Positions 17,584-26,631 of a DNA stretch of 57,162 nucleotides are shown piece by piece (position 1 is the first letter of the stretch; the number at the start of each line of letters is the position of its first letter). The stretch spans positions 1-57,162 of the forward strand of contig DASCPW010000052.1 in the NCBI GenBank assembly GCA_036012725.1, read 5' to 3'. This DNA is from Rhodospirillales bacterium (GTDB lineage Bacteria > Pseudomonadota > Alphaproteobacteria > Rhodospirillales > 2-02-FULL-58-16). Both the position numbers and the translations under genes were made by a program. Under the pieces are notes generated by a model. It was not told the origin of the DNA. It was given only the letters and a program-made list of their open reading frames with translations, and searched no databases.

Positions 17584-19581
17584 TCACTCGGGCAAGTTCA
17601 CCGCCCCGGCCAAGCTGGGGAAGCGGTGCGAGGCATGGGGAATGTCCATGGCGGCAACGAAATAGTCCTGAAATTCTGGCGCCGTCGCCGTTTCCACCTT
17701 TTCGACGCGTTTGACCAGGGCCTCGATCTCGGCCCGCGCCTGGCGGCTGAGCAAGGCGATGCGGGCACCGGTGCCGGCGGCGTTGCCGGCCGGGCCGACC
17801 TTTGCCAGATCGCAATCGGGGATCATCCCGATCACCATCGCGTATTTGGTGTCGATATAAGCGCCGAAAGCACCGGCCAAGAGGATATGCTCGACCCGCT
17901 CCACCCCCATCCTGTCCATCAGCAGGCGGACACCGGAATAACAGGCCGCCTTGGCCAATTGGATGGCGCGGATATCGGCCTGCGTCACCAGAAGTTCCGG
18001 CGGTCCGACATGGAGGAGATAATTGAAATTACGCCCTTCGGGAACCAAGTGCGCGGTCCGCTTGGCGTTGACGCCTTGGCCGTCGATGCGACCGCTGGCA
18101 TCGACAATTCCGGCCAAAAACATTTCCGCCACCGCCTCGATGATGCCGGAGCCGCAAATGCCGGTGACGCCGATACCGGCTATGGCTTCGGAAAAACCGG
18201 GATCATCGGACCATAGGTCCGACCCGATGACCTTGAAGCGCGGCGCCAAACTGTCGCGGTCGATGCGGACCCTCTCGATGGCGCCGGCGGCGGCGCGCTG
18301 GCCGCAACTGATCTGCGCGCCCTCGAAAGCGGGGCCGGTGGGACTGGAACAGGCAAGCAGACGGTGATTGTCGCCCAAGACGATCTCGGCGTTGGTGCCA
18401 ACATCGATGACGAGGGTCAGCTCGTCGGACCCGTGGGGCGATTCCGAAAGGATCACGCCGGCCGTGTCGGCGCCGACGAAACCGGCGATACAGGGCAGGA
18501 AATAGGCATGCGCTCCGGGATTGAGGCTCAATTTCAGGTCCCGGGCCATAAGGGTCACGCTTTCGTCCGTCACCATCGCGAAAGGGGCCTGGCCCAATTG
18601 CCTGGGATCGATGCCAAGCATCAAGTGATGCATGACCGGATTGCCGACAAAAGTAGCCTCGATAACGTCTGTTAAATCGATTCCGGCATCAAAGGCGGCG
18701 GTGGCGGCGAGCTTGGCGACGGCCTCGCGCACGGCAGTGGTCAGTTGCGGAGCCTGGTCCTGGTTTTGTTGCAGGTAGGAAAGCCGGCTCATCACGTCCT
18801 CGCCGAAACGGATTTGCGGATTCATTGCGCCGGCCGAACCGACCACCTCACCGGTGGCGAGATGGCAAAGATGGACGGCGACTGTAGTCGTGCCGATATC
18901 GACGGCGAGCCCGAACACATGGTCATGAAATCCCGGCCAGACGGCGGTAATGAGTTTACCCTCGCGGACGGCAACGGTGACCTTCCAGTCGCCGCCGTAG
19001 GTCTCGCCGCTACGCGCGGCTTGGGAAAGCGACCGCAAAACACCAGCGTCGCAATCCAGGTCTTCAAGCTGCCAGTTTTCGGCCAACGCCAGTTTCAGAC
19101 GGTTGAGATCGCTGCTCTGGTCATCCATGCCGGGCTTCGACATCTCGACATAATGAAGCTTGATCAGGGGGTCGATCTCCATGGCGCGGGTGTCGGCACG
19201 CTTACGCACCATCTGTTTGTGAATTTGGCTTTCCGCCGGCACGTCGATAACCACGTCACCGGTTAGGCGAGCGGCACAGCTTAACCGGTGGCCGGGGAGT
19301 AAGCCCTTTGTTTCGGCAAAATGTTTCTCGACTTCCCCAACCGGCGAGAGGTGACTTTTCTCCGACGTGATCGCGAATTTGGCGAAAACACCAGTGCTTA
19401 AACTAACTTGGCAACGCCCGCATATGCCCCGCCCGCCGCAAACGGAATCGATGTCGACACCAAGATCGCGCGCCGCCCTGAGCAAGGGCGTGCCCTGGGG
19501 AAAACAGCCACGCCGTCCCGACGGCGTAAAAACCACCAGGGCATCGTCGGCGGCGCCCCGCTTTGGCCTGGATTTCGCCAT
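17584..19581 (-). CDS. RACo-type corrinoid reductive activase (N-terminal plant-type 2Fe-2S ferredoxin + ASKHA/DUF4445 ATPase)
   Basis: 665-aa ORF. The ferredoxin cysteines are CGGRGICGRCQV plus RLSCAA. ASKHA phosphate motifs are GLAVDIGTTTVAV and LVIDVGTNAEIV, with PAFEGAQISCG also present. The start lies 3 nt after the stop of the upstream pterin methyltransferase. Confidence 0.85.
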   Translation of the reverse strand: MAKSRPKRGAADDALVVFTPSGRRGCFPQGTPLLRAARDLGVDIDSVCGGRGICGRCQVSLSTGVFAKFAITSEKSHLSPVGEVEKHFAETKGLLPGHRLSCAARLTGDVVIDVPAESQIHKQMVRKRADTRAMEIDPLIKLHYVEMSKPGMDDQSSDLNRLKLALAENWQLEDLDCDAGVLRSLSQAARSGETYGGDWKVTVAVREGKLITAVWPGFHDHVFGLAVDIGTTTVAVHLCHLATGEVVGSAGAMNPQIRFGEDVMSRLSYLQQNQDQAPQLTTAVREAVAKLAATAAFDAGIDLTDVIEATFVGNPVMHHLMLGIDPRQLGQAPFAMVTDESVTLMARDLKLSLNPGAHAYFLPCIAGFVGADTAGVILSESPHGSDELTLVIDVGTNAEIVLGDNHRLLACSSPTGPAFEGAQISCGQRAAAGAIERVRIDRDSLAPRFKVIGSDLWSDDPGFSEAIAGIGVTGICGSGIIEAVAEMFLAGIVDASGRIDGQGVNAKRTAHLVPEGRNFNYLLHVGPPELLVTQADIRAIQLAKAACYSGVRLLMDRMGVERVEHILLAGAFGAYIDTKYAMVIGMIPDCDLAKVGPAGNAAGTGARIALLSRQARAEIEALVKRVEKVETATAPEFQDYFVAAMDIPHASHRFPSLAGAVNLPE

Positions 19582-19584
19582 GCT

Positions 19585-20454
19585 CTAATTTTTTTCTTTT
19601 GCGGCTTTAATTTTTGCCCGCGCCCGCGTCATCCAGGCCATGCACTGTTGATCATGGCCCATCACCACATCGGCGGCCTTGATGGCGGTCATCAGATCTT
19701 CGTGTAACGGGTTGGCGATCGCCGAGGTCAGCCCGGCGGCCATCATCATGGCGATGAAAGCGGAGTTGAGGCCATGGCGTTCGGGAAGGCCAAAGCCGAC
19801 GTTCGACGCGCCACATGTCGTGTTGACCTTCAGTTCCTCGCGCACCCTTTGAGTTACGTCGAGAACCGCGCGTCCGGAGTCTTGGACCGCGCCGACGGGA
19901 AAAACCAATGGATCGATCACCACATCACAGGCGGCTATGCCGTGATCGGCGGCGCGCTCGACGATTTTTTTGGCCGCCTTGAAACGAACCTCCGGGTCCG
20001 GCGAAAGCCCCTCGGCGTCGTGCGCCATGCCAATGACGGCGGCGTCATACTTTTTGACCAGCGGCAGAACGCTTTCAAGACGCTCGTCTTCGCCGGTGAC
20101 CGAATTGACCAGGGCCTTTCCCTGGTAAACGGCAAGCCCCGCCGCCAGGGGTTCGTTACCGGATGAATCGATGGCCAACGGGACATCGGTCAGCGACTGC
20201 GCCAACTTGACGACATCCGCCAGGATTTTCTTTTCGTCGGCCATCGGCAGACCGGCATTGACATCGAGCATATCGGCGCCGGCTTCGATTTGGGCGAGCA
20301 CATCTTTCTCGACGCGGCTGTAATCTCCGGCCGACATTTCATCGGCCAGCATTTGACGGCCACTAGGATTGATGCGCTCGCCAATGACCACGAAAGAGCG
20401 ATCAAAGCCGATGACCACCTCCTTGGAAGCCGAGCTGATGACGGTGTCAGTCAT
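19585..20454 (-). CDS. pterin-binding methyltransferase (methyltetrahydrofolate:corrinoid methyltransferase family, MeTr/AcsE/CmuB/MtrH-like)
   Basis: 289-aa ORF with the DHPS-like TIM-barrel pattern IGERINPSGR, DMLDVNAG, LAIDSS, ALVNSVTGE and VIDPLV. An AAGGAG RBS lies 7 nt upstream of the ATG. Confidence 0.85.
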   Translation of the reverse strand: MTDTVISSASKEVVIGFDRSFVVIGERINPSGRQMLADEMSAGDYSRVEKDVLAQIEAGADMLDVNAGLPMADEKKILADVVKLAQSLTDVPLAIDSSGNEPLAAGLAVYQGKALVNSVTGEDERLESVLPLVKKYDAAVIGMAHDAEGLSPDPEVRFKAAKKIVERAADHGIAACDVVIDPLVFPVGAVQDSGRAVLDVTQRVREELKVNTTCGASNVGFGLPERHGLNSAFIAMMMAAGLTSAIANPLHEDLMTAIKAADVVMGHDQQCMAWMTRARAKIKAAKEKN

Positions 20455-20505
20455 GAAAGTCTCCTTTCATCCGATCATGAATTGAGATGAAAATCAATGG
20501 GATCA

Positions 20506-21348
20506 CTAATCTTTCGGTATTCGGTTGGCAATGACCCGGTAGAGTCCACCACCGATCAAGGCGCCGAGAATGGGTGCTAAAATATAGATGGTGAAAAACC
20601 CGCCACGCGGACCGGGAATGGCGATCTCGCCCCAGCCCAAGAAAAAAGAGACCAAGCGCGGCCCAAAGTCCCGGGCCGGGTTGATCCCGGCTTGCGTCAG
20701 TGGCGCTATCACCGAAATAATGGCGGCCACCCCAATGCCGATTATCACCGCCCCCATTGCCGACGGCGGACGCGCCGTGTTGCGGTGATGGGTCACCGTG
20801 GCGACCAAGAAGGCAAGCATCGCCGTTCCCACCATCTCCGCCAGGAATGCTGTGCTGGGAGTGATGATCCGCCATGCGTCCTCGGCCGTGCCGTATACGG
20901 CGGGGTTGGGAAAATACTCGCCGAAGAGCATGGCGCTGAGTTCGCTTCCCGGCCCCCCGCGCAAGAGTCCGTGCAGACGTTCAAACTCGATGATAGCCTC
21001 CGAGAACATGGCGTAGATGACCAGCGACGCGCAAGCCGCGCCGGCCGTCTGGGCAATCCAATAAGGGGCAACGCGGGAAAGCGGGAAGCCGTCGTAAGCA
21101 GCGGCGGCGACCGTGATCGCCGGGTTAATATGGGCCCCGGAAAGAGACGCCGAAGCATAAATCCCCAAACTCACCCCGACCGCCCAGACGACCGCCACTT
21201 GCCACAAACCCACCTGGGCGCCCGTCACCACGGCCGCGTTGACGGCGCCAACACCGAAGAAAACCAAAACGAAGGTGCCGAAAAACTCGCCCATCAGCGC
21301 CGGCCAGAGCGGTCCCGCCGCCACTCTCATCTGATCATTCCGCGGCAT
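20506..21348 (-). CDS. MIP-family channel, aquaglyceroporin (GlpF clade)
   Basis: 280-aa ORF with two NPA boxes (SGAHINPAITVA; AGINPARDFGPR). The Asp after the second NPAR and the GlpF-like GLWQVAV Trp are present, and the sequence can be aligned with E. coli GlpF along its whole length from memory. An alternative start exists at 21330. Confidence 0.9.
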   Translation of the reverse strand: MPRNDQMRVAAGPLWPALMGEFFGTFVLVFFGVGAVNAAVVTGAQVGLWQVAVVWAVGVSLGIYASASLSGAHINPAITVAAAAYDGFPLSRVAPYWIAQTAGAACASLVIYAMFSEAIIEFERLHGLLRGGPGSELSAMLFGEYFPNPAVYGTAEDAWRIITPSTAFLAEMVGTAMLAFLVATVTHHRNTARPPSAMGAVIIGIGVAAIISVIAPLTQAGINPARDFGPRLVSFFLGWGEIAIPGPRGGFFTIYILAPILGALIGGGLYRVIANRIPKD

Positions 21349-22483
21349 TCGGAAAGAAATCCTTTTCGGTAATTTCGGGGATGTCGATGGGATAGTCCCG
21401 GCACTGTTCGAAAGCCGTCAGCATGGCCCAAATATTTTTCATTGGCACGTCCTGATAGATCAGATGGGCCGGCTGGAAGATATAGCCGCCGCCGGGAGCA
21501 TAAGCCTTGATCAGCCTCCTCACATGCATGCGAATCTCCGGAAGGGTACCGTTCGGCAGGACTTGCTGAACGTCAAGTCCGCCCTTGAACATTACTTTGC
21601 CGCCCCATTTTCTCTTATTTTCCCATGGGTTTTTGAAACCTGCCACCGGCTGCATGGTCGACAGCATGGTGAATCCCATGTCGATGAAATCGCCCGCGAC
21701 CGCACTGAAGTCACCGCAGGAATGGTACATGAAGTTGGTTTCCGGGCTCTTCTCCTTCCAGGTGTCGATTAACCGTTTGATCCTCGGTCTGACGTGCTCG
21801 CGCCACATCTCCGGCGGGATCAGCAAGCCGTTTTGAACGCCGATGTCGTCGCCGATGCGGATGATGTCGGCGCCATGTTCGATGGCCCGTAAACCCAGTT
21901 CACTGTAGTAATCGGCCAAGCCGTCCAGCAACCGGCCGGCCCAGGCCGGATCATCGTAGAGATCGAGGATCATGTTTTGCATTCCCCGAAGGTGCGCCAT
22001 CGAGGCTTCGAACAGGGTGCTGGAGACATCGGCCAGGATGACGTGGCTGTCGCCGTAAATGGCGATGACTTCGTCGAGTTCCTTCATCCGCCTGGCTTCG
22101 CTCGGATCGGGCCACTGAAAATCATCCAGTTGGTCGCGGCTTTCGCCCAGGGGATGTTTTACCGGATTGTCGAACTGGTTTTGCCGTTCATAGGTGACCC
22201 CCCATTCGGATACGTAGGTGTCGCCTTCGTTCATGAGCCCGCCGCCAGCCATTTCCATCATCGAATTGATGCCCAGTTGTACAACGATCAGGTCGTTGCC
22301 GATCAGCTTCGACAAATGCCCTCCATAGCTCATGGATTCTCCGGGCTTCGGTTCATACCCATAGATTTCCGCGAGTTTGACGGCGGTGCTCGTGGCCCAG
22401 CGAATGCTCTGCGGAACCTTGTCCGGCTCTTCGAAGTTAAGGGCCTTGAAAAAGCGTTCCCTTGAGGTCATTTGCTTGCTCAT
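21335..22483 (-). CDS. URO-D-family (MtaA/MtbA/MtsA/CmuA-N-like) corrinoid-dependent methyltransferase
   Basis: The ORF runs 21335-22516. The ATG at 22483 (MSKQMTSRERFFKALNFEEPDKVP) overlaps the corrinoid-protein stop as ATGA. The sequence is URO-D-like and carries a YHSCGD (H-x-C-G) motif. Confidence 0.8.
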   Translation of the reverse strand: MSKQMTSRERFFKALNFEEPDKVPQSIRWATSTAVKLAEIYGYEPKPGESMSYGGHLSKLIGNDLIVVQLGINSMMEMAGGGLMNEGDTYVSEWGVTYERQNQFDNPVKHPLGESRDQLDDFQWPDPSEARRMKELDEVIAIYGDSHVILADVSSTLFEASMAHLRGMQNMILDLYDDPAWAGRLLDGLADYYSELGLRAIEHGADIIRIGDDIGVQNGLLIPPEMWREHVRPRIKRLIDTWKEKSPETNFMYHSCGDFSAVAGDFIDMGFTMLSTMQPVAGFKNPWENKRKWGGKVMFKGGLDVQQVLPNGTLPEIRMHVRRLIKAYAPGGGYIFQPAHLIYQDVPMKNIWAMLTAFEQCRDYPIDIPEITEKDFFPNAAE

Positions 22484-23214
22484 CCGACCACTCCACTGAT
22501 GAATCCGGGCTGGCATTCCTTGTCAATTAGCTTTTTCGCCACTTCGACGGCGCTGGCAGCGTCCGGCGCAAAACCATCGGCGCCCGATTGTTTGGCGTAG
22601 TCCTCGGTCACCGGAGCGCCACCGCACATGATTCTGAACGTGTTGCTTCTGGTCCCCGCCGCCTTAATAGCTTTGATCGTCTCACCTTGCATGGACATGG
22701 TCGTACTCAACAATGCCGACATGCAAAGGAGGTCCGCTTTAAGATCCCTGATCTTGTCGACGAATGTCTGGACATTGACGTTTACGCCAATGTCATGAAT
22801 TTTGAAACCGGCGCCTTCCAGCATCATGCCGACCATGTTCTTGCCAATATCGTGAAGGTCGCCCTGAACCGTTCCCAGAACGACGGTTCCCAAAGGCTCG
22901 TTGCCGAGCTTGGTCAATATCGGCCTTAGTACCTCCATCCCGGAGTGCATGGCCCGGGCGGTCAGAAGAACCTCCGGAATAAAAGCCTCGTTTTTTTTGA
23001 AACGCTCGCCAACGACGGCCAGGCCGGCTTGCAGCCCGTCCCGGAGAACGTCGAAAGGAGCGATACCCATATCGAGCGCCGCCTGCGTTGCTTCCGGCAC
23101 GGCGCCGGCATCGCCCACCTCGACAATGTCGGCAAGATTCTGTAACGCTTGCAGAACCCCGTCGTCACCCTCGACAATGCGCCGTTCACCACTAATCGGA
23201 TCGATAACTTCCAT
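22480..23214 (-). CDS. cobalamin-binding corrinoid protein (MtaC/MtbC/MtgC-like: helical cap + B12 Rossmann domain)
   Basis: 244-aa ORF with the DxHxxG motif in VQGDLHDIGKNMVG, SxL in CMSALLSTT and GG in MCGGAPV. The RBS is GAGGAAAAA-ATG. Confidence 0.9.
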   Translation of the reverse strand: MEVIDPISGERRIVEGDDGVLQALQNLADIVEVGDAGAVPEATQAALDMGIAPFDVLRDGLQAGLAVVGERFKKNEAFIPEVLLTARAMHSGMEVLRPILTKLGNEPLGTVVLGTVQGDLHDIGKNMVGMMLEGAGFKIHDIGVNVNVQTFVDKIRDLKADLLCMSALLSTTMSMQGETIKAIKAAGTRSNTFRIMCGGAPVTEDYAKQSGADGFAPDAASAVEVAKKLIDKECQPGFISGVVG

Positions 23215-23303
23215 TTTTTCCTCTACTGGCGAGGCTGCCGGGGTTCTAAAATTTCAACTCGGTCGAAAGCCAGCTGCTTCCGGACCCGGCACCCCAACCT
23301 CGT

Positions 23304-23669
23304 CTATTTATTCGCTCCTGGCTGGCTGTTGCCGGTATCAACATAAGGGTTTGAGAGATCGACAAGGGGTCCGCACAGTTCTGGATCACCTTGACAGCAA
23401 TCCCGGGTCAGGAAGATCAGGAGTTCCCGCGTTCCCTCCATATGGGCGGTATAAAAGATTTGCCTTTGTACCCGCCACGAAGTGAGCAATCCGGCCTCTT
23501 CGAGTTGCGAGAGATGGGAAGACAGCGTTGATGGCGGAACGTCCAGGCGGCCCGAGATGCCACCGGCGGAAAGACCGTCCGGACCTTCCTTGACGAGAAG
23601 ACGGAAGGCGGCCAAGCGGGTTTCCTGAGCGAGTGCCGCCAAAGCTTTCAATGCTTTTTTAGGTTCCAT
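23304..23669 (-). CDS. arsR: ArsR/SmtB-family metalloregulator with a C-terminal Cys91-Cys92-x6-Cys99 triad
   Basis: 121-aa ORF with a wHTH core (ALAQETRLAAFRLLVKEGPDGLSAGGISGRLDVPPSTLSSHLSQLEEAGLL). There is no CVC motif in the helix-3 region. The C-terminal FLTRDCCQGDPELC resembles the C-terminal As(III) site of the Acidithiobacillus-type ArsR. Confidence 0.85.
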   Translation of the reverse strand: MEPKKALKALAALAQETRLAAFRLLVKEGPDGLSAGGISGRLDVPPSTLSSHLSQLEEAGLLTSWRVQRQIFYTAHMEGTRELLIFLTRDCCQGDPELCGPLVDLSNPYVDTGNSQPGANK

Positions 23670-23689
23670 ATTTCGACAATTGCCGAAAT
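23670..23689. promoter_or_regulatory. 20-bp near-perfect palindrome ATTTCGACAATTGCCGAAAT abutting the arsR start codon; candidate ArsR operator
   Basis: 9 of 10 positions pair. It lies immediately 5' of the arsR ATG (23669-23667), inside an AT-rich divergent intergenic region. Confidence 0.4.
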
Positions 23690-24082
23690 TACGTATTAAT
23701 TCAAGAAATAAATGCTTGCATGTTTATGAAATCATCACCGGCCATCTGGTCAGTAATATCATTTTCGGTGCACGCCCCCTCATCGCCGTCATCTGCGGCG
23801 AAAAAGACGGGTCGACCGGCGCCTGACATCGGGCAAAAGAACTCCGGTCAAAGATAGCGCCAGAAAATCGGCTGGGTTGCGAGCAAAAACGACGCTATCT
23901 TGTTTGAGAATGCATTTTCCCTGGTTTCATACGGGAGGTGGCGACAACATCACCGGCATAGGCTTGCCGCCAAATCGACGCCGTAAATCGCGGTTGGATG
24001 GAACTTTTGCGGTGACCGGCAATCTCCGTGACCCAAAAAGTTTTTTTAAGACCGATCGAAACGGAAAGGTTTTGAGGAAGCA

Positions 24083-25410: not shown

Positions 25411-26548
25411 TCACGGTTGCCGGTAGGTGATCCGGTAGATCGCCCCCAGGCGGTCATCGGAAACTAACAGCGAGCCGTCGGCAAGCTCCTTGACGTCGAC
25501 CGGCCGGCCCCAGGCCCTGCCCTTGACCAGCCAGCCCTCGGCAAAATGCTCAAAGGACAAGGCGCGAACCTGGCGGTCGAATTTCACCCGTGCCACCCGA
25601 TAGCCATCGGGAATAGTCCGGTTCCAGGAGCCGTGCTGGGCAACGAAGGCATCGTTCCGGTAGGCCTCGGAGAACATGGCGCCACGGTACAAAGTGAATG
25701 CCCAGGGCGGCGACATGGGCGCCGAAGCGAATTTCAGGCATGATCGACGGCGGCTGTTTTCGTCCCTTGAAGGCATCGGTGCGAACGTCGCCGCCGCCGT
25801 AGAAGGGAAATCCGAAATCAAGCCCCGGCCTTGGCGCGTGGTTGAGTTCGTCCGACGGAACGTCGTCACCCATATTGTCGGCGCCATTATCGGTAAAATG
25901 AAGCTCTCCGGTGGCGGGATGGAAGTCCATGCCGACCAAGTTGCGGACGCCGCCGGCATAGATATCCGCCTCGCCGCCGGCCGGGTAGAGGCGGATGATG
26001 GTACCCTCCAAACCGGAGACTTCGCAGATATTGCAGGGCGAACCGACCGCCACGTAAAGCTTGCCGTCGGGTCCGAAAGCGGTGTAGCGCCAGCCATGCC
26101 AAGGATTGTCGGGCAGCCCGTCGAAGAGAACTTGCGCGGTTGCCCGGGCCAGCGTTTGCAGATCGGCGGCCAGAAAACGGACGACGCGGTGCTGCTCGGC
26201 GACGTAGAGGTATCCGTCCCGTCAAACAATGCCGTTGGGGACATGCAGGCCGGACTTCACCTTGACCACCGTCTCGGCACGCTGGTCGCCGTCGGCATCG
26301 GCGGCGGCAAAAATGGAATTGCCGCGAGTGCCGACGAAAACCACCCCCAATTCCGCCGCCACCGCCATCGACCTGGCCCCGGGGATGCGCGCGTACATGC
26401 CGATCCCAAAACCCGGCGGCAAGGAGATGCCGTCAAATCGGGAAGCAGCGGCGGAATGGGCCGGAAGCGCCAGACCGAAGCAAACCACCAGCAGGATCAA
26501 GATCCTCTGCCAGGGGCGGACGGCAACGGCTGTGTTGGCGACGGTCAT
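25411..26548 (-). pseudogene. PQQ-dependent sugar (sorbosone/glucose) dehydrogenase family gene, inactivated
   Basis: Three ORF fragments (26222-26617, 25550-26053, 25411-26244) together spell one beta-propeller protein with a signal peptide (MTVANTAVAVRPWQRILILLVVCFGLALPAHS). It is interrupted by an in-frame TGA at 26222-26224 (NGIV*RDGYLYVAE) and a 1-nt frameshift near 25690 (ALGIHF/YRGAMFSEAY...HGSWNR). Confidence 0.8.
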
Positions 26549-26631
26549 GGCTAAAGATTTTGGAGCGCTCGCCCGAACGGGCGCAAGAGGCAGCGCCTCC
26601 GGGACAACAAAAACCAAGCGGGAAAAGGGTG

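Follow-up and report, generated by a model that had tools for sequence, protein, structure and literature searches.

To our knowledge, only two enzyme types act on the methylation state of arsenic, the S-adenosylmethionine (SAM)-dependent methyltransferase ArsM and the oxygen-dependent C-As lyase ArsI. Methylation state governs the toxicity, volatility and mobility of the element; rice paddies, with dimethylarsenate, and surface seawater, with methylarsenicals, are examples. Papers of 2019, 2023 and August 2026 report anoxic arsenic demethylation without a known mechanism or gene, and those of 2023 and August 2026 use generic methanogen methyltransferases as proxies for the anaerobic process. 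The three-component bacterial systems that rely on a RACo/AE activase (the O-demethylases Odm/Vdm/Mtv, CdmBCA for chloromethane, CmuAB, and Mtg for glycine betaine) have the same four parts as an operon that we examine here, but none of them has been described with ArsR, a MIP channel or ars efflux genes. The operon, which includes both an arsR gene and a MIP gene, comprises six genes on the minus strand (17584–23669) of contig DASCPW010000052.1 from an uncultured marine Rhodospirillales bacterium, and the whole 57,162 nt stretch analysed is referred to here as the window. As judged from sequence comparisons, there is about an even chance that this is an arsenic-inducible operon for a SAM-independent route, separate from those of ArsM and ArsI, in which a corrinoid/tetrahydrofolate (H4folate) system methylates or demethylates a small neutral arsenical.

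An intact corrinoid/folate module in one operon with arsR and a MIP gene

All six open reading frames (ORFs) are intact. Their tight packing, shared direction, coordinates and junctions in the ORF listing are exactly those of the original prediction, which had been made from the sequence alone, and its domain calls for all six proteins were borne out by Pfam and NCBIfam profile searches (Table 1). The 89 nt gap that separates arsR from the corrinoid protein gene ends in GTAGAGGAAAAAATG. The corrinoid protein gene is joined by an ATGA stop/start overlap to the URO-D-family methyltransferase gene, here named URO-D-A, and the start of the latter at 22483 agrees with independent gene calls of 382 aa. 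A 14 nt overlap leads into the MIP gene if it starts at 21348; some database members use an alternative start six codons downstream, which gives a protein of 274 aa. Gaps of 51 and 3 nt, respectively, precede the genes for the pterin-binding methyltransferase (MeTr) and the RACo-type activase. Terminator-like sites within the cluster did not exceed the chance level and none was predicted in the arsR–corrinoid spacer, and a scan for sigma-70 promoters detected no consensus. The identical six-gene set was present at 99–100% identity in three independent metagenome contigs (L001, L049 and L050) and is therefore not an assembly artefact. The operon proteins were seen at 99–100% identity on approximately 20 independent contigs, Tara Oceans data included.

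Four of the six genes make up a complete, intact corrinoid/folate methyl-transfer module. The corrinoid protein consists of a B12-binding cap (PF02607) and a Rossmann domain (PF02310), with the His-on motif DxHxxG present as D119-L-H-D-I-G. It matches the NCBIfam MtgC-like and pyl_corrinoid models below their cutoffs and is 52–57% identical to the corrinoid proteins encoded beside orthologues of URO-D-A. MeTr (PF00809) scored 331 bits against NF005719, for which the cutoff is 259. The activase combines a 2Fe-2S ferredoxin domain with an ASKHA ATPase (PF00111, PF17650, PF17651 and PF14574), and its AcsV-like match in NCBIfam reached 401 bits, under the cutoff of 800.

The original prediction had raised the question of whether URO-D-A, the substrate-specific component, would fall into a clade that is already characterised, and profile searches placed it in none. 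It scored 77.9 bits against TIGR01463 (mtaA_cmuA; cutoff 235), 43.7 bits against MtaA_Meth (cutoff 400) and 30.4 bits against MtbA (cutoff 600), and with all NCBIfam scores far under the cutoffs, membership in MtaA, MtbA, MtaA/CmuA or hemE was rejected. Matches in the PDB were also weak. Only MtaA (4AY7; E = 2.7e-5, residues 200–359) was returned by phmmer with the single protein, and a family profile returned MtaA (8e-11), UroD and, marginally, CdmB (7e-4 over approximately 80 residues). In the alignment with 4AY7, YHSCGD pairs with LHICGN and PAH with PGC, which predicts a zinc site composed of His254-x-Cys256 and His340, the last of these aligned with the distal zinc Cys of MtaA. The H-x-C and PAH features are invariant in 22 orthologues.

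Close relatives of URO-D-A are few, with one at 99% and one at 72% identity. The next group, at 42–55% identity, is found in metagenome-assembled genomes (MAGs) of Nitrospirota, Desulfobacterales, Chloroflexota, Bacillota and Kuenenia, and includes some proteins fused to a corrinoid domain; orthologues at 42–72% identity otherwise come from anaerobe MAGs. In a neighbour-joining tree, the window protein and that of a Rhodospirillaceae MAG (L002) formed a pair with 100% bootstrap support, and this pair was nested within the anaerobe clade with support of 72–79%, which suggests that URO-D-A was acquired horizontally. When the protein was used to query plasmids with tblastn, only paralogues at 26–28% identity were returned.

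The cluster in the 3.9 kb contig of the Rhodospirillaceae MAG (L002/L004) is the sole other one from an alphaproteobacterium and looks degraded. Its corrinoid ORF is just 99 aa long and its MeTr matches lie in two reading frames; coverage is low and an assembly error is possible. At four other loci (L003, 8218–9975; L005, 18–1493; L006, 8172–9929; L024, 5045–6823), URO-D-A paralogues with a C-terminal corrinoid-binding domain, as in CmuA, lie directly upstream of an unfused URO-D-A and corrinoid protein pair.

The ArsR protein has a winged-helix domain (PF12840, HTH_20, and PF01022, HTH_5), scored 53.2 bits against NF033788, slightly below the cutoff of 55, and carries a C-terminal triad of Cys91, Cys92 and Cys99 (DCCQGDPELC). 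The closest solved structure is 6J05 (E = 1e-16), which we take to be the Acidithiobacillus ferrooxidans ArsR with its As(III) site at Cys95/96/102. In the alignment of the two, LTRDCCQGDPELC pairs with LTENCCHGTRD-C of 6J05, with one extra residue ahead of the third Cys. Homologues at 60–73% identity are mainly from Rhodospirillales. One of them (69% identity, Nitrospirillum) sits in an arsH-arsR-arsC(-acetyltransferase)-acr3 operon, and another (70%) precedes, with a 1 nt overlap, a 163 aa ArsI/CadI-family VOC gene that scored 113.4 bits against a cutoff of 116. This pair (L051, 1618–2468; L052, 218–1068) would be an ArsR with a putative C-As lyase; the contig that carries the 70% homologue is different from that of the 72% URO-D relative. 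The alignment and the genomic context of the relatives uphold the earlier assignment of the regulator to the As(III) type. A SahR-like ArsR that senses S-adenosylhomocysteine, a possibility raised for hgcAB, is unlikely given that the arsenic-type Cys triad has been kept and that relatives are found in ars operons.

The palindrome at 23670–23689 is a 90% complementary inverted repeat without a spacer. Approximately 60 nt upstream of arsR, the palindrome included, are almost invariant in L053, which shares the synteny of the window and encodes an 86% identical ArsR, and the sequences farther upstream have diverged. From this, we infer a candidate for an autoregulated promoter/operator. Ligand binding relieves repression by ArsR-family proteins, and arsenic would thus be expected to turn on the operon. 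No Shine-Dalgarno sequence precedes arsR and the conserved block (window 23670–23760) reaches the ATG; the arsR transcript may be leaderless.

The MIP channel (PF00230, NPA/NPA) had been assigned to the GlpF clade in the original prediction. Overall likeness agrees with this, as it is 38% identical to Escherichia coli GlpF, its top solved relative (E = 1e-46). However, the aromatic/arginine filter is W/I/A/R and not the W/G/F/R of GlpF (Trp48-Gly191-Phe200-Arg206). Residues 11–257 of the GlpF sequence used for the filter comparison agree with the solved-structure alignment. More than 100 MIP relatives at 77–84% identity, with the same filter residues, were found in marine Rhodospirillaceae and Magnetovibrio MAGs. 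As URO-D-A has no relatives at that level, the channel was recruited from the host lineage. Inheritance of the channel together with the methyltransferase genes was rejected, as it is only 37% identical to the MIP of L003 and 25–28% identical to the type found in L002, L023 and L036, compared with 77–84% to the Rhodospirillaceae MIPs. Plasmid matches to relatives of the window MIP were at most 41% identical in tblastn, and a scan of viral contigs found none. The operon is a mosaic of acquired methyltransferase genes, a Rhodospirillales-type ArsR and a native-type MIP.

Arsenic genes and transporters at related loci

To survey the neighbourhoods of related genes, 48 loci were fetched and scored by tblastn with seed proteins identified via Pfam and NCBIfam. 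De-duplication left 21 locus groups (368 kb), and five loci with distant paralogues (45 kb) served as a control. Ars-type genes (ArsR, ArsD, ArsA, ACR3 or ArsP-like) were found in 10 of the 21 groups, often adjacent and co-directional (Table 1), and ars genes or MIP in 15, while none of the five control loci has either. Approximately 20 of about 300 called ORFs are ars genes, which by a rough estimate is a tens-fold enrichment over an assumed 0.1–0.2% of bacterial genes. The ArsR-type regulators at the orthologous loci carry arsenic-type Cys motifs (MCVCE, LCVCE, HCNCE or a C-terminal NCC) and the ArsD proteins carry MCCSxGxCG; the ArsD of L006 scored 124.8 bits against a cutoff of 90.

Gene orders and ArsR classes differ between the loci, which argues for repeated selection and against a single inherited arrangement. 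The MIPs found with URO-D-A genes are of three or more unrelated types, which fill the same transporter slot: the window type, to which that of L003 (37% identical to the window MIP; filter F/M/A/R) is assigned, an atypical NPA/NPQ channel and a split gene in L019. Given these channel types, and the proportions of groups with ars genes or with either ars genes or MIP, the link to arsenic is recurrent in the family and no accident of the window. Had the orthologous clusters lacked MIP and ArsR genes, the channel could have been an adventitious insertion, as the original prediction had pointed out; instead, clusters from other phyla repeatedly carry ars regulators, efflux genes and MIP.

Table 1. 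Components of the operon in the window and gene content of related loci with ars-type genes (CP, corrinoid protein)
Feature or locus	Source	Coordinates	Strand	Description or genes
Candidate operator palindrome ATTTCGACAA/TTGCCGAAAT	window	23670..23689	n/a	20-bp near-perfect inverted repeat abutting the arsR start codon
arsR	window	23304..23669	-	ArsR/SmtB repressor; Pfam HTH_20 + HTH_5
arsR-corrinoid spacer	window	23215..23303	-	89 nt; GAGGAAAAA ribosome-binding site before the corrinoid ATG
Corrinoid methyl-carrier protein	window	22480..23214	-	Pfam B12-binding_2 + B12-binding
URO-D-A methyltransferase	window	21335..22483	-	MtaA superfamily, substrate-specific component; Pfam URO-D
MIP channel	window	20506..21348	-	Pfam MIP; two NPA motifs
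Pterin-binding methyltetrahydrofolate:corrinoid methyltransferase	window	19585..20454	-	methyltransferase II, MeTr type; Pfam Pterin_bind
RACo-type reductive activase	window	17584..19581	-	Pfam Fer2, RACo_linker, Raco_middle, RACo_C_ter
L006	Nitrospiraceae			URO-D-CP fusion, URO-D, CP, MFS, MeTr, CobW, ACR3, ArsD, ArsA, FolD
L014	Chloroflexota			MeTr, 41-nt gap, ArsD, ArsA
L007	Nitrospirae			URO-D, ArsD
L037	metagenome contig			ArsR, ArsD, ArsA
L010	Deltaproteobacteria			ArsR, ArsP-like, CP, URO-D, DUF47, PiT-type permease
L019	Bacillota			PadR, ArsP_1, AraC, URO-D, CP, MIP, MeTr, second URO-D, CP, FeS, NrfD, Mo-enzyme
L016	metagenome contig			ACR3 (373 bits, cutoff 283) + ArsA, 6 kb away
L021, L056	35%-identity Pseudomonadota sister clade			MeTr, URO-D, CP, RACo, CobW, GntR, ArsR, ArsD, ArsA

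The position between the substrate methyltransferase/corrinoid protein genes and MeTr is a transporter slot, occupied by MIP in the window and L019 and by a major facilitator superfamily (MFS) gene in L003, L005, L006, L026 and L037. An atypical MIP with NPA/NPQ motifs was found in L002 (2361–3074), L023 (5135–5827) and L036 (3089–3781). It has V/L/M/V at the positions of GlpF W48/G191/F200/R206, and thus no Arg, is 75% identical between the Rhodospirillaceae MAG and the anaerobe metagenome contigs, and always adjoins a URO-D-A gene. In L019 (11784–12449) and L020 (4482–5141), the MIP is split into ORFs of 119 and 90 aa. As these are two independent assemblies, a real frameshift or pseudogene is suggested over a sequencing error.

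Many clusters from anaerobes contain a second URO-D paralogue (approximately 30% identical) with its own corrinoid protein. The anaerobe clusters also include an enzyme with a molybdenum-bis(pyranopterin guanine dinucleotide) (Mo-bisPGD) cofactor, for which the best NCBIfam match was PhsA at 413–460 bits (cutoff 694), with ArrA at approximately 210 bits, and which lacks a twin-arginine signal. It is accompanied by a 4Fe-4S (Fer4_11) subunit and by a membrane protein of the NrfD or QmoC-like type. This Phs/Psr-like gene is located in L016 (11158–13272), L019 (16558–18717), L023 (2967–5081) and L036 (921–3035), and is also present in L009, L013, L014 and L015.

Some of the relatives' clusters include PiT-type transporters. 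Liv-type (HAAT family) ABC genes with Peripla_BP_6 were seen in L007 (1268–6012), L014 (4531–9529), L019 (2773–7489), L021 (18465–21170) and L028, and the recurrence of these importers in several lineages hints at an imported organic substrate. CobW/COG0523-type GTPases, for which the best NCBIfam match was 'CobW-related selenoprotein', are encoded in L006 (14955–15572), L012/L019 (18747–19649), L021 (13999–14961) and L037 (15686–16303), and could be metallochaperones for the zinc methyltransferase. On the opposite strand, upstream of the 35%-clade clusters in L021 (3350–6577) and L056 (166–6710), lies a block that encodes a Rieske protein, a 2Fe-2S ferredoxin, a ferredoxin reductase, a hemopexin-like protein and a class-I methyltransferase, with a homocysteine S-methyltransferase-family gene in L056 as well. 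This block could represent an oxygenase or demethylase module of its own.

The operon in the window is flanked by ordinary alphaproteobacterial core chromosome, including the atp operon, priA, xerC, gmk, trpBA, addAB, ahcY, a ChvG/ChvI-like pair and pckA. No further ars, cobalamin or one-carbon (C1) genes were found elsewhere in the window. The segment at 25411–26554 has overlapping ORFs on both strands with no Pfam match and may be a pseudogene. At the equivalent position in L053, an intact 378 aa gene of the GSDH/TrAA12 type adjoins the same histidine kinase, and in L001 only an 88 aa TrAA12 fragment is present.

Substrate and direction of methyl transfer

If the substrate is an arsenical, the operon might work as follows. 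ArsR would bind the palindrome at its own start codon and be released by As(III) or methylarsenite at Cys91/92/99, as suggested by the conserved operator-like block and by homology to arsenic-responsive ArsRs. The five downstream genes, with their overlaps and short gaps, would be co-transcribed and translationally coupled. The MIP could pass an uncharged arsenical such as As(OH)3, CH3As(OH)2, protonated dimethylarsinic acid or trimethylarsine oxide. In keeping with the known function of its family, RACo would draw on ATP and a low-potential electron to bring the corrinoid protein back to Co(I). The putatively zinc-containing URO-D-family enzyme would shift the methyl group between the arsenical and cobalt, and the pterin-binding enzyme, as is known for its family, would exchange the corrinoid methyl with H4folate. 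That arsenic is predicted to switch the operon on fits arsenic as the substrate.

Given an arsenical substrate, we slightly favour demethylation over methylation. A methyl-As(V) species and Co(I) would yield CH3-Co(III) and a lower-methylated As(III) species, with CH3-H4folate as the final form of the methyl group. We lean this way because every characterised bacterial system that combines a substrate-specific methyltransferase (MT I), a corrinoid protein, a pterin-binding methyltransferase (MT II) and RACo runs as a demethylase, and because the clusters of the anaerobic relatives include importers, FolD and pumps that would expel arsenite as the end product. In the relatives with two URO-D/corrinoid pairs and a Mo-enzyme, two methyl transfers could flank an As(III)/As(V) redox step, in other words the Challenger scheme in one direction or the other; the window operon, with one methyltransferase and no Mo-enzyme, would do one step.

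Methylation, in which CH3-H4folate would load the corrinoid protein through the pterin-binding enzyme, URO-D-A would methylate As(III) or Sb(III) in a route independent of ArsM that detoxifies or yields methylarsenite, and the neutral product would exit via the MIP, accounts for part of the probability that we give to an arsenical substrate and is, taken alone, rather improbable. A three-Cys ArsR is expected to sense inorganic As(III), which would be the substrate, and a channel without a pump suits passive exit of a neutral product, just as the unusually hydrophobic filters (W/I/A/R in the window and V/L/M/V in L002, L023 and L036) suit methylated species. ArsP is a methylarsenite efflux permease, and ArsP-like permeases adjoin two clusters. 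The corrinoid metal methylase genes hgcAB are likewise ArsR-linked, and methylcobalamin and MtaA-type enzymes are generally known to methylate metalloids in vitro. Set against this, besides the uniform demethylase precedent, are the importers of the relatives (substrate-binding protein-dependent ABC, MFS and PiT), which together with FolD fit catabolism of an imported methyl donor, and ACR3, ArsD and ArsA, which export As(III), the product of demethylation.

Several observations weigh against an arsenical substrate in either direction. The gene survey found no arsenite pump or reductase in the window. Many Nitrospirota clusters have an MFS transporter that resembles aromatic-acid/H+ symporters, other clusters have the Liv-type ABC importers, and neither set includes an obvious arsenical transporter. 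The MIP subfamily of the window is abundant in marine Rhodospirillaceae that lack this methyltransferase, and the channel is therefore not arsenic-specific evidence. Vicinal Cys pairs bind As(III) in ArsM, ArsI, ArsR, ArsD and ArsP, while URO-D-A has no such pair, Cys256 being its sole invariant Cys, and its predicted site, His-x-Cys...His, is a variant of that in MtaA, where zinc serves for thiol substrates. No ars gene was found within the fetched flanks at 11 of the 21 loci, some of which are too short to judge, the control set is small (5 loci, 45 kb), and some of the loci with ars genes may be related by descent and thus not wholly independent.

The thiol-type zinc motif, the lack of a vicinal Cys pair and the 11 loci without ars genes lend weight to a demethylase for a non-arsenical methyl donor that feeds the folate C1 pool, with dimethylsulfide (DMS), methanethiol, reduced dimethylsulfoxide (DMSO), a methyl halide, methanol or methyl selenide as candidate substrates. 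The HxCG zinc motif is common to the thiol methyltransferases MtaA, MtbA and MtsA and to CmuA, the URO-D-corrinoid fusions of Nitrospirota have the architecture of CmuA, and hydrophobic MIP filters suit DMS or methyl halides. A cytoplasmic Mo-enzyme of the Phs/Psr/DMSO-reductase family with two methyltransferases would fit a route from DMSO via DMS and methanethiol to sulfide. In marine alphaproteobacteria, oxidation of methyl groups commonly runs via H4folate, and split B12 methyltransferases are used aerobically. The ars neighbours would then reflect collateral protection against adventitious arsenic methylation by methyl-corrinoids, co-transfer in an island, or an ArsR with a changed ligand. 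However, the adjacent ArsD, ArsA and ACR3 genes and arsenic-motif ArsRs, in varied orders and ArsR classes across several phyla, are left unexplained. An ArsR-type repressor would turn the operon on with arsenic, the opposite of what collateral protection needs, and the window ArsR retains its full Cys triad and has near relatives that control ars genes. We regard a non-arsenical donor, the main rival, as unlikely, though it deserves serious weight.

The mosaic origin of the operon would also be consistent with a relic, in which transferred methyltransferase genes came to lie beside native arsR and MIP genes without any integrated function. The nesting of the window/L002 URO-D pair among anaerobe sequences, the Rhodospirillales-type MIP and ArsR genes, and the degraded appearance of the sister cluster in L002, with its 99 aa corrinoid protein and frameshifted MeTr, all fit this. 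Nonetheless, the six ORFs are intact, the ATGA and 14 nt overlaps imply translational coupling, 99–100% identity is conserved on approximately 20 independent contigs, the transporter slot has been kept in distant clusters, and the predicted zinc ligands and the DxHxxG motif are intact. A non-functional acquisition is very improbable.

An arsenical substrate remains the reading that we prefer. The original prediction had put forward methylation of metalloids, their demethylation and demethylation of a small non-metalloid donor; the ars and MIP census, the position of URO-D-A outside known clades and the arsenic-type ArsR favour the first two, while the MtaA-like predicted zinc site, of a kind typical of thiol methyltransferases, keeps the last alive. 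The ars linkage is incomplete (10 of 21), and the lineage-native MIP is weaker evidence for arsenic than the original prediction had supposed. A broader proposal, to which we give slightly less than even credence, is that URO-D-A represents the missing O2- and SAM-independent enzyme of the arsenic methyl cycle, a zinc/corrinoid enzyme that would move methyl groups between arsenicals and H4folate. In anaerobes, it would be coupled to a cytoplasmic Mo-enzyme that switches arsenic between As(III) and As(V) from one methyl transfer to the next, and to product export by ArsD/ArsA/ACR3; in the marine alphaproteobacterium, it would have come under an As(III)-type ArsR, along with a native MIP.

Comparison with described systems

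The searchable full-text literature yielded no account of a corrinoid methyltransferase system with a link to ArsR, to ars genes or to an aquaglyceroporin, though subscription journals may hold one, and the combination that the original prediction had called undescribed has no prior description there. If the arsenical reading is true, it would provide a gene-level explanation of anoxic methylarsenical demethylation or of ArsM-independent methylation. It would also offer a family whose genes can be followed through genomes and metatranscriptomes and whose activity can be assayed in vitro, and arsenic would join the short list of elements handled by corrinoids. Even with a non-arsenical substrate, it would be unusual for an aerobic marine bacterium to have a B12 methyltransferase operon under the control of an arsenic sensor.

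The known enzymes that add methyl groups to arsenic or remove them, ArsM and ArsI, are commonly ArsR-controlled within ars operons, and an ArsI/CadI-like gene follows the 70% identical ArsR homologue described above. None of the six proteins has a SAM-methyltransferase domain, as in ArsM, or a VOC/dioxygenase domain, as in ArsI. In contrast to both, the chemistry of the operon would depend on cobalamin and folate and would need no oxygen. The channel gene, as a GlpF-clade MIP gene in an ArsR-controlled operon, is like aqpS. The aqpS gene sits in a Sinorhizobium ars operon, whereas the window MIP has a W/I/A/R filter, not W/G/F/R, and its gene is embedded in a methyltransferase module, not beside arsC.

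The nearest conceptual parallels are hgcAB and the split B12 methyltransferases of aerobic marine alphaproteobacteria. HgcAB carries out corrinoid-dependent methyl transfer to a toxic element, as is proposed for the operon, and its genes have an upstream ArsR-like regulator and respond to arsenic. However, the partner of the ferredoxin HgcB is HgcA, a CFeSP-like corrinoid protein anchored in the membrane, and there is no URO-D protein, dedicated pterin methyltransferase, RACo or MIP. The corrinoid protein of the window is soluble and MtgC/MtbC-like, and no ORF for an HgcB-like (2x[4Fe-4S]) ferredoxin is present.

MtaA, MtbA and MtsA of methanogens are the closest solved (4AY7) and curated relatives of URO-D-A and share the H-x-C-G motif with it. 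MtaA-type enzymes with methylcobalamin have been reported to methylate metalloids. The window enzyme differs from all three in its predicted third zinc ligand, which is His and not Cys, in its partner, H4folate instead of coenzyme M, and in its bacterial host. MtaA-like proteins also occur with a corrinoid protein, together with a Ram/RACE activase, in the widespread type 1 mlp clusters, for which a methyl-sulfur or methyl-selenide substrate has been proposed (Kountz and Balskus preprint, PMC10418091). Several Mlps (Mlp2, Mlp3) and no H4folate methyltransferase are found in those clusters, which are confined to obligate anaerobes, and arsenic, ArsR and MIP go unmentioned in that work (PMC10418091). 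As the window has a single URO-D gene and a pterin-binding methyltransferase, and no arsenic link is made for the mlp clusters (PMC10418091), the two are not the same system.

The bacterial systems with a RACo/AE activase match the operon in all four parts. The MT I of Odm, Mtv, Cdm and Cmu belongs, like that of the window, to the UroD superfamily. However, URO-D-A lies outside all of those clades (CdmB, E = 7e-4 over approximately 80 residues; TIGR01463, 78 bits compared with 235), and whereas CmuA is a fusion of methyltransferase and corrinoid domains, URO-D is the only domain of the window protein and a separate gene encodes the corrinoid protein. The operon is a known kind of methyl-transfer machinery with a possibly new class of substrate.

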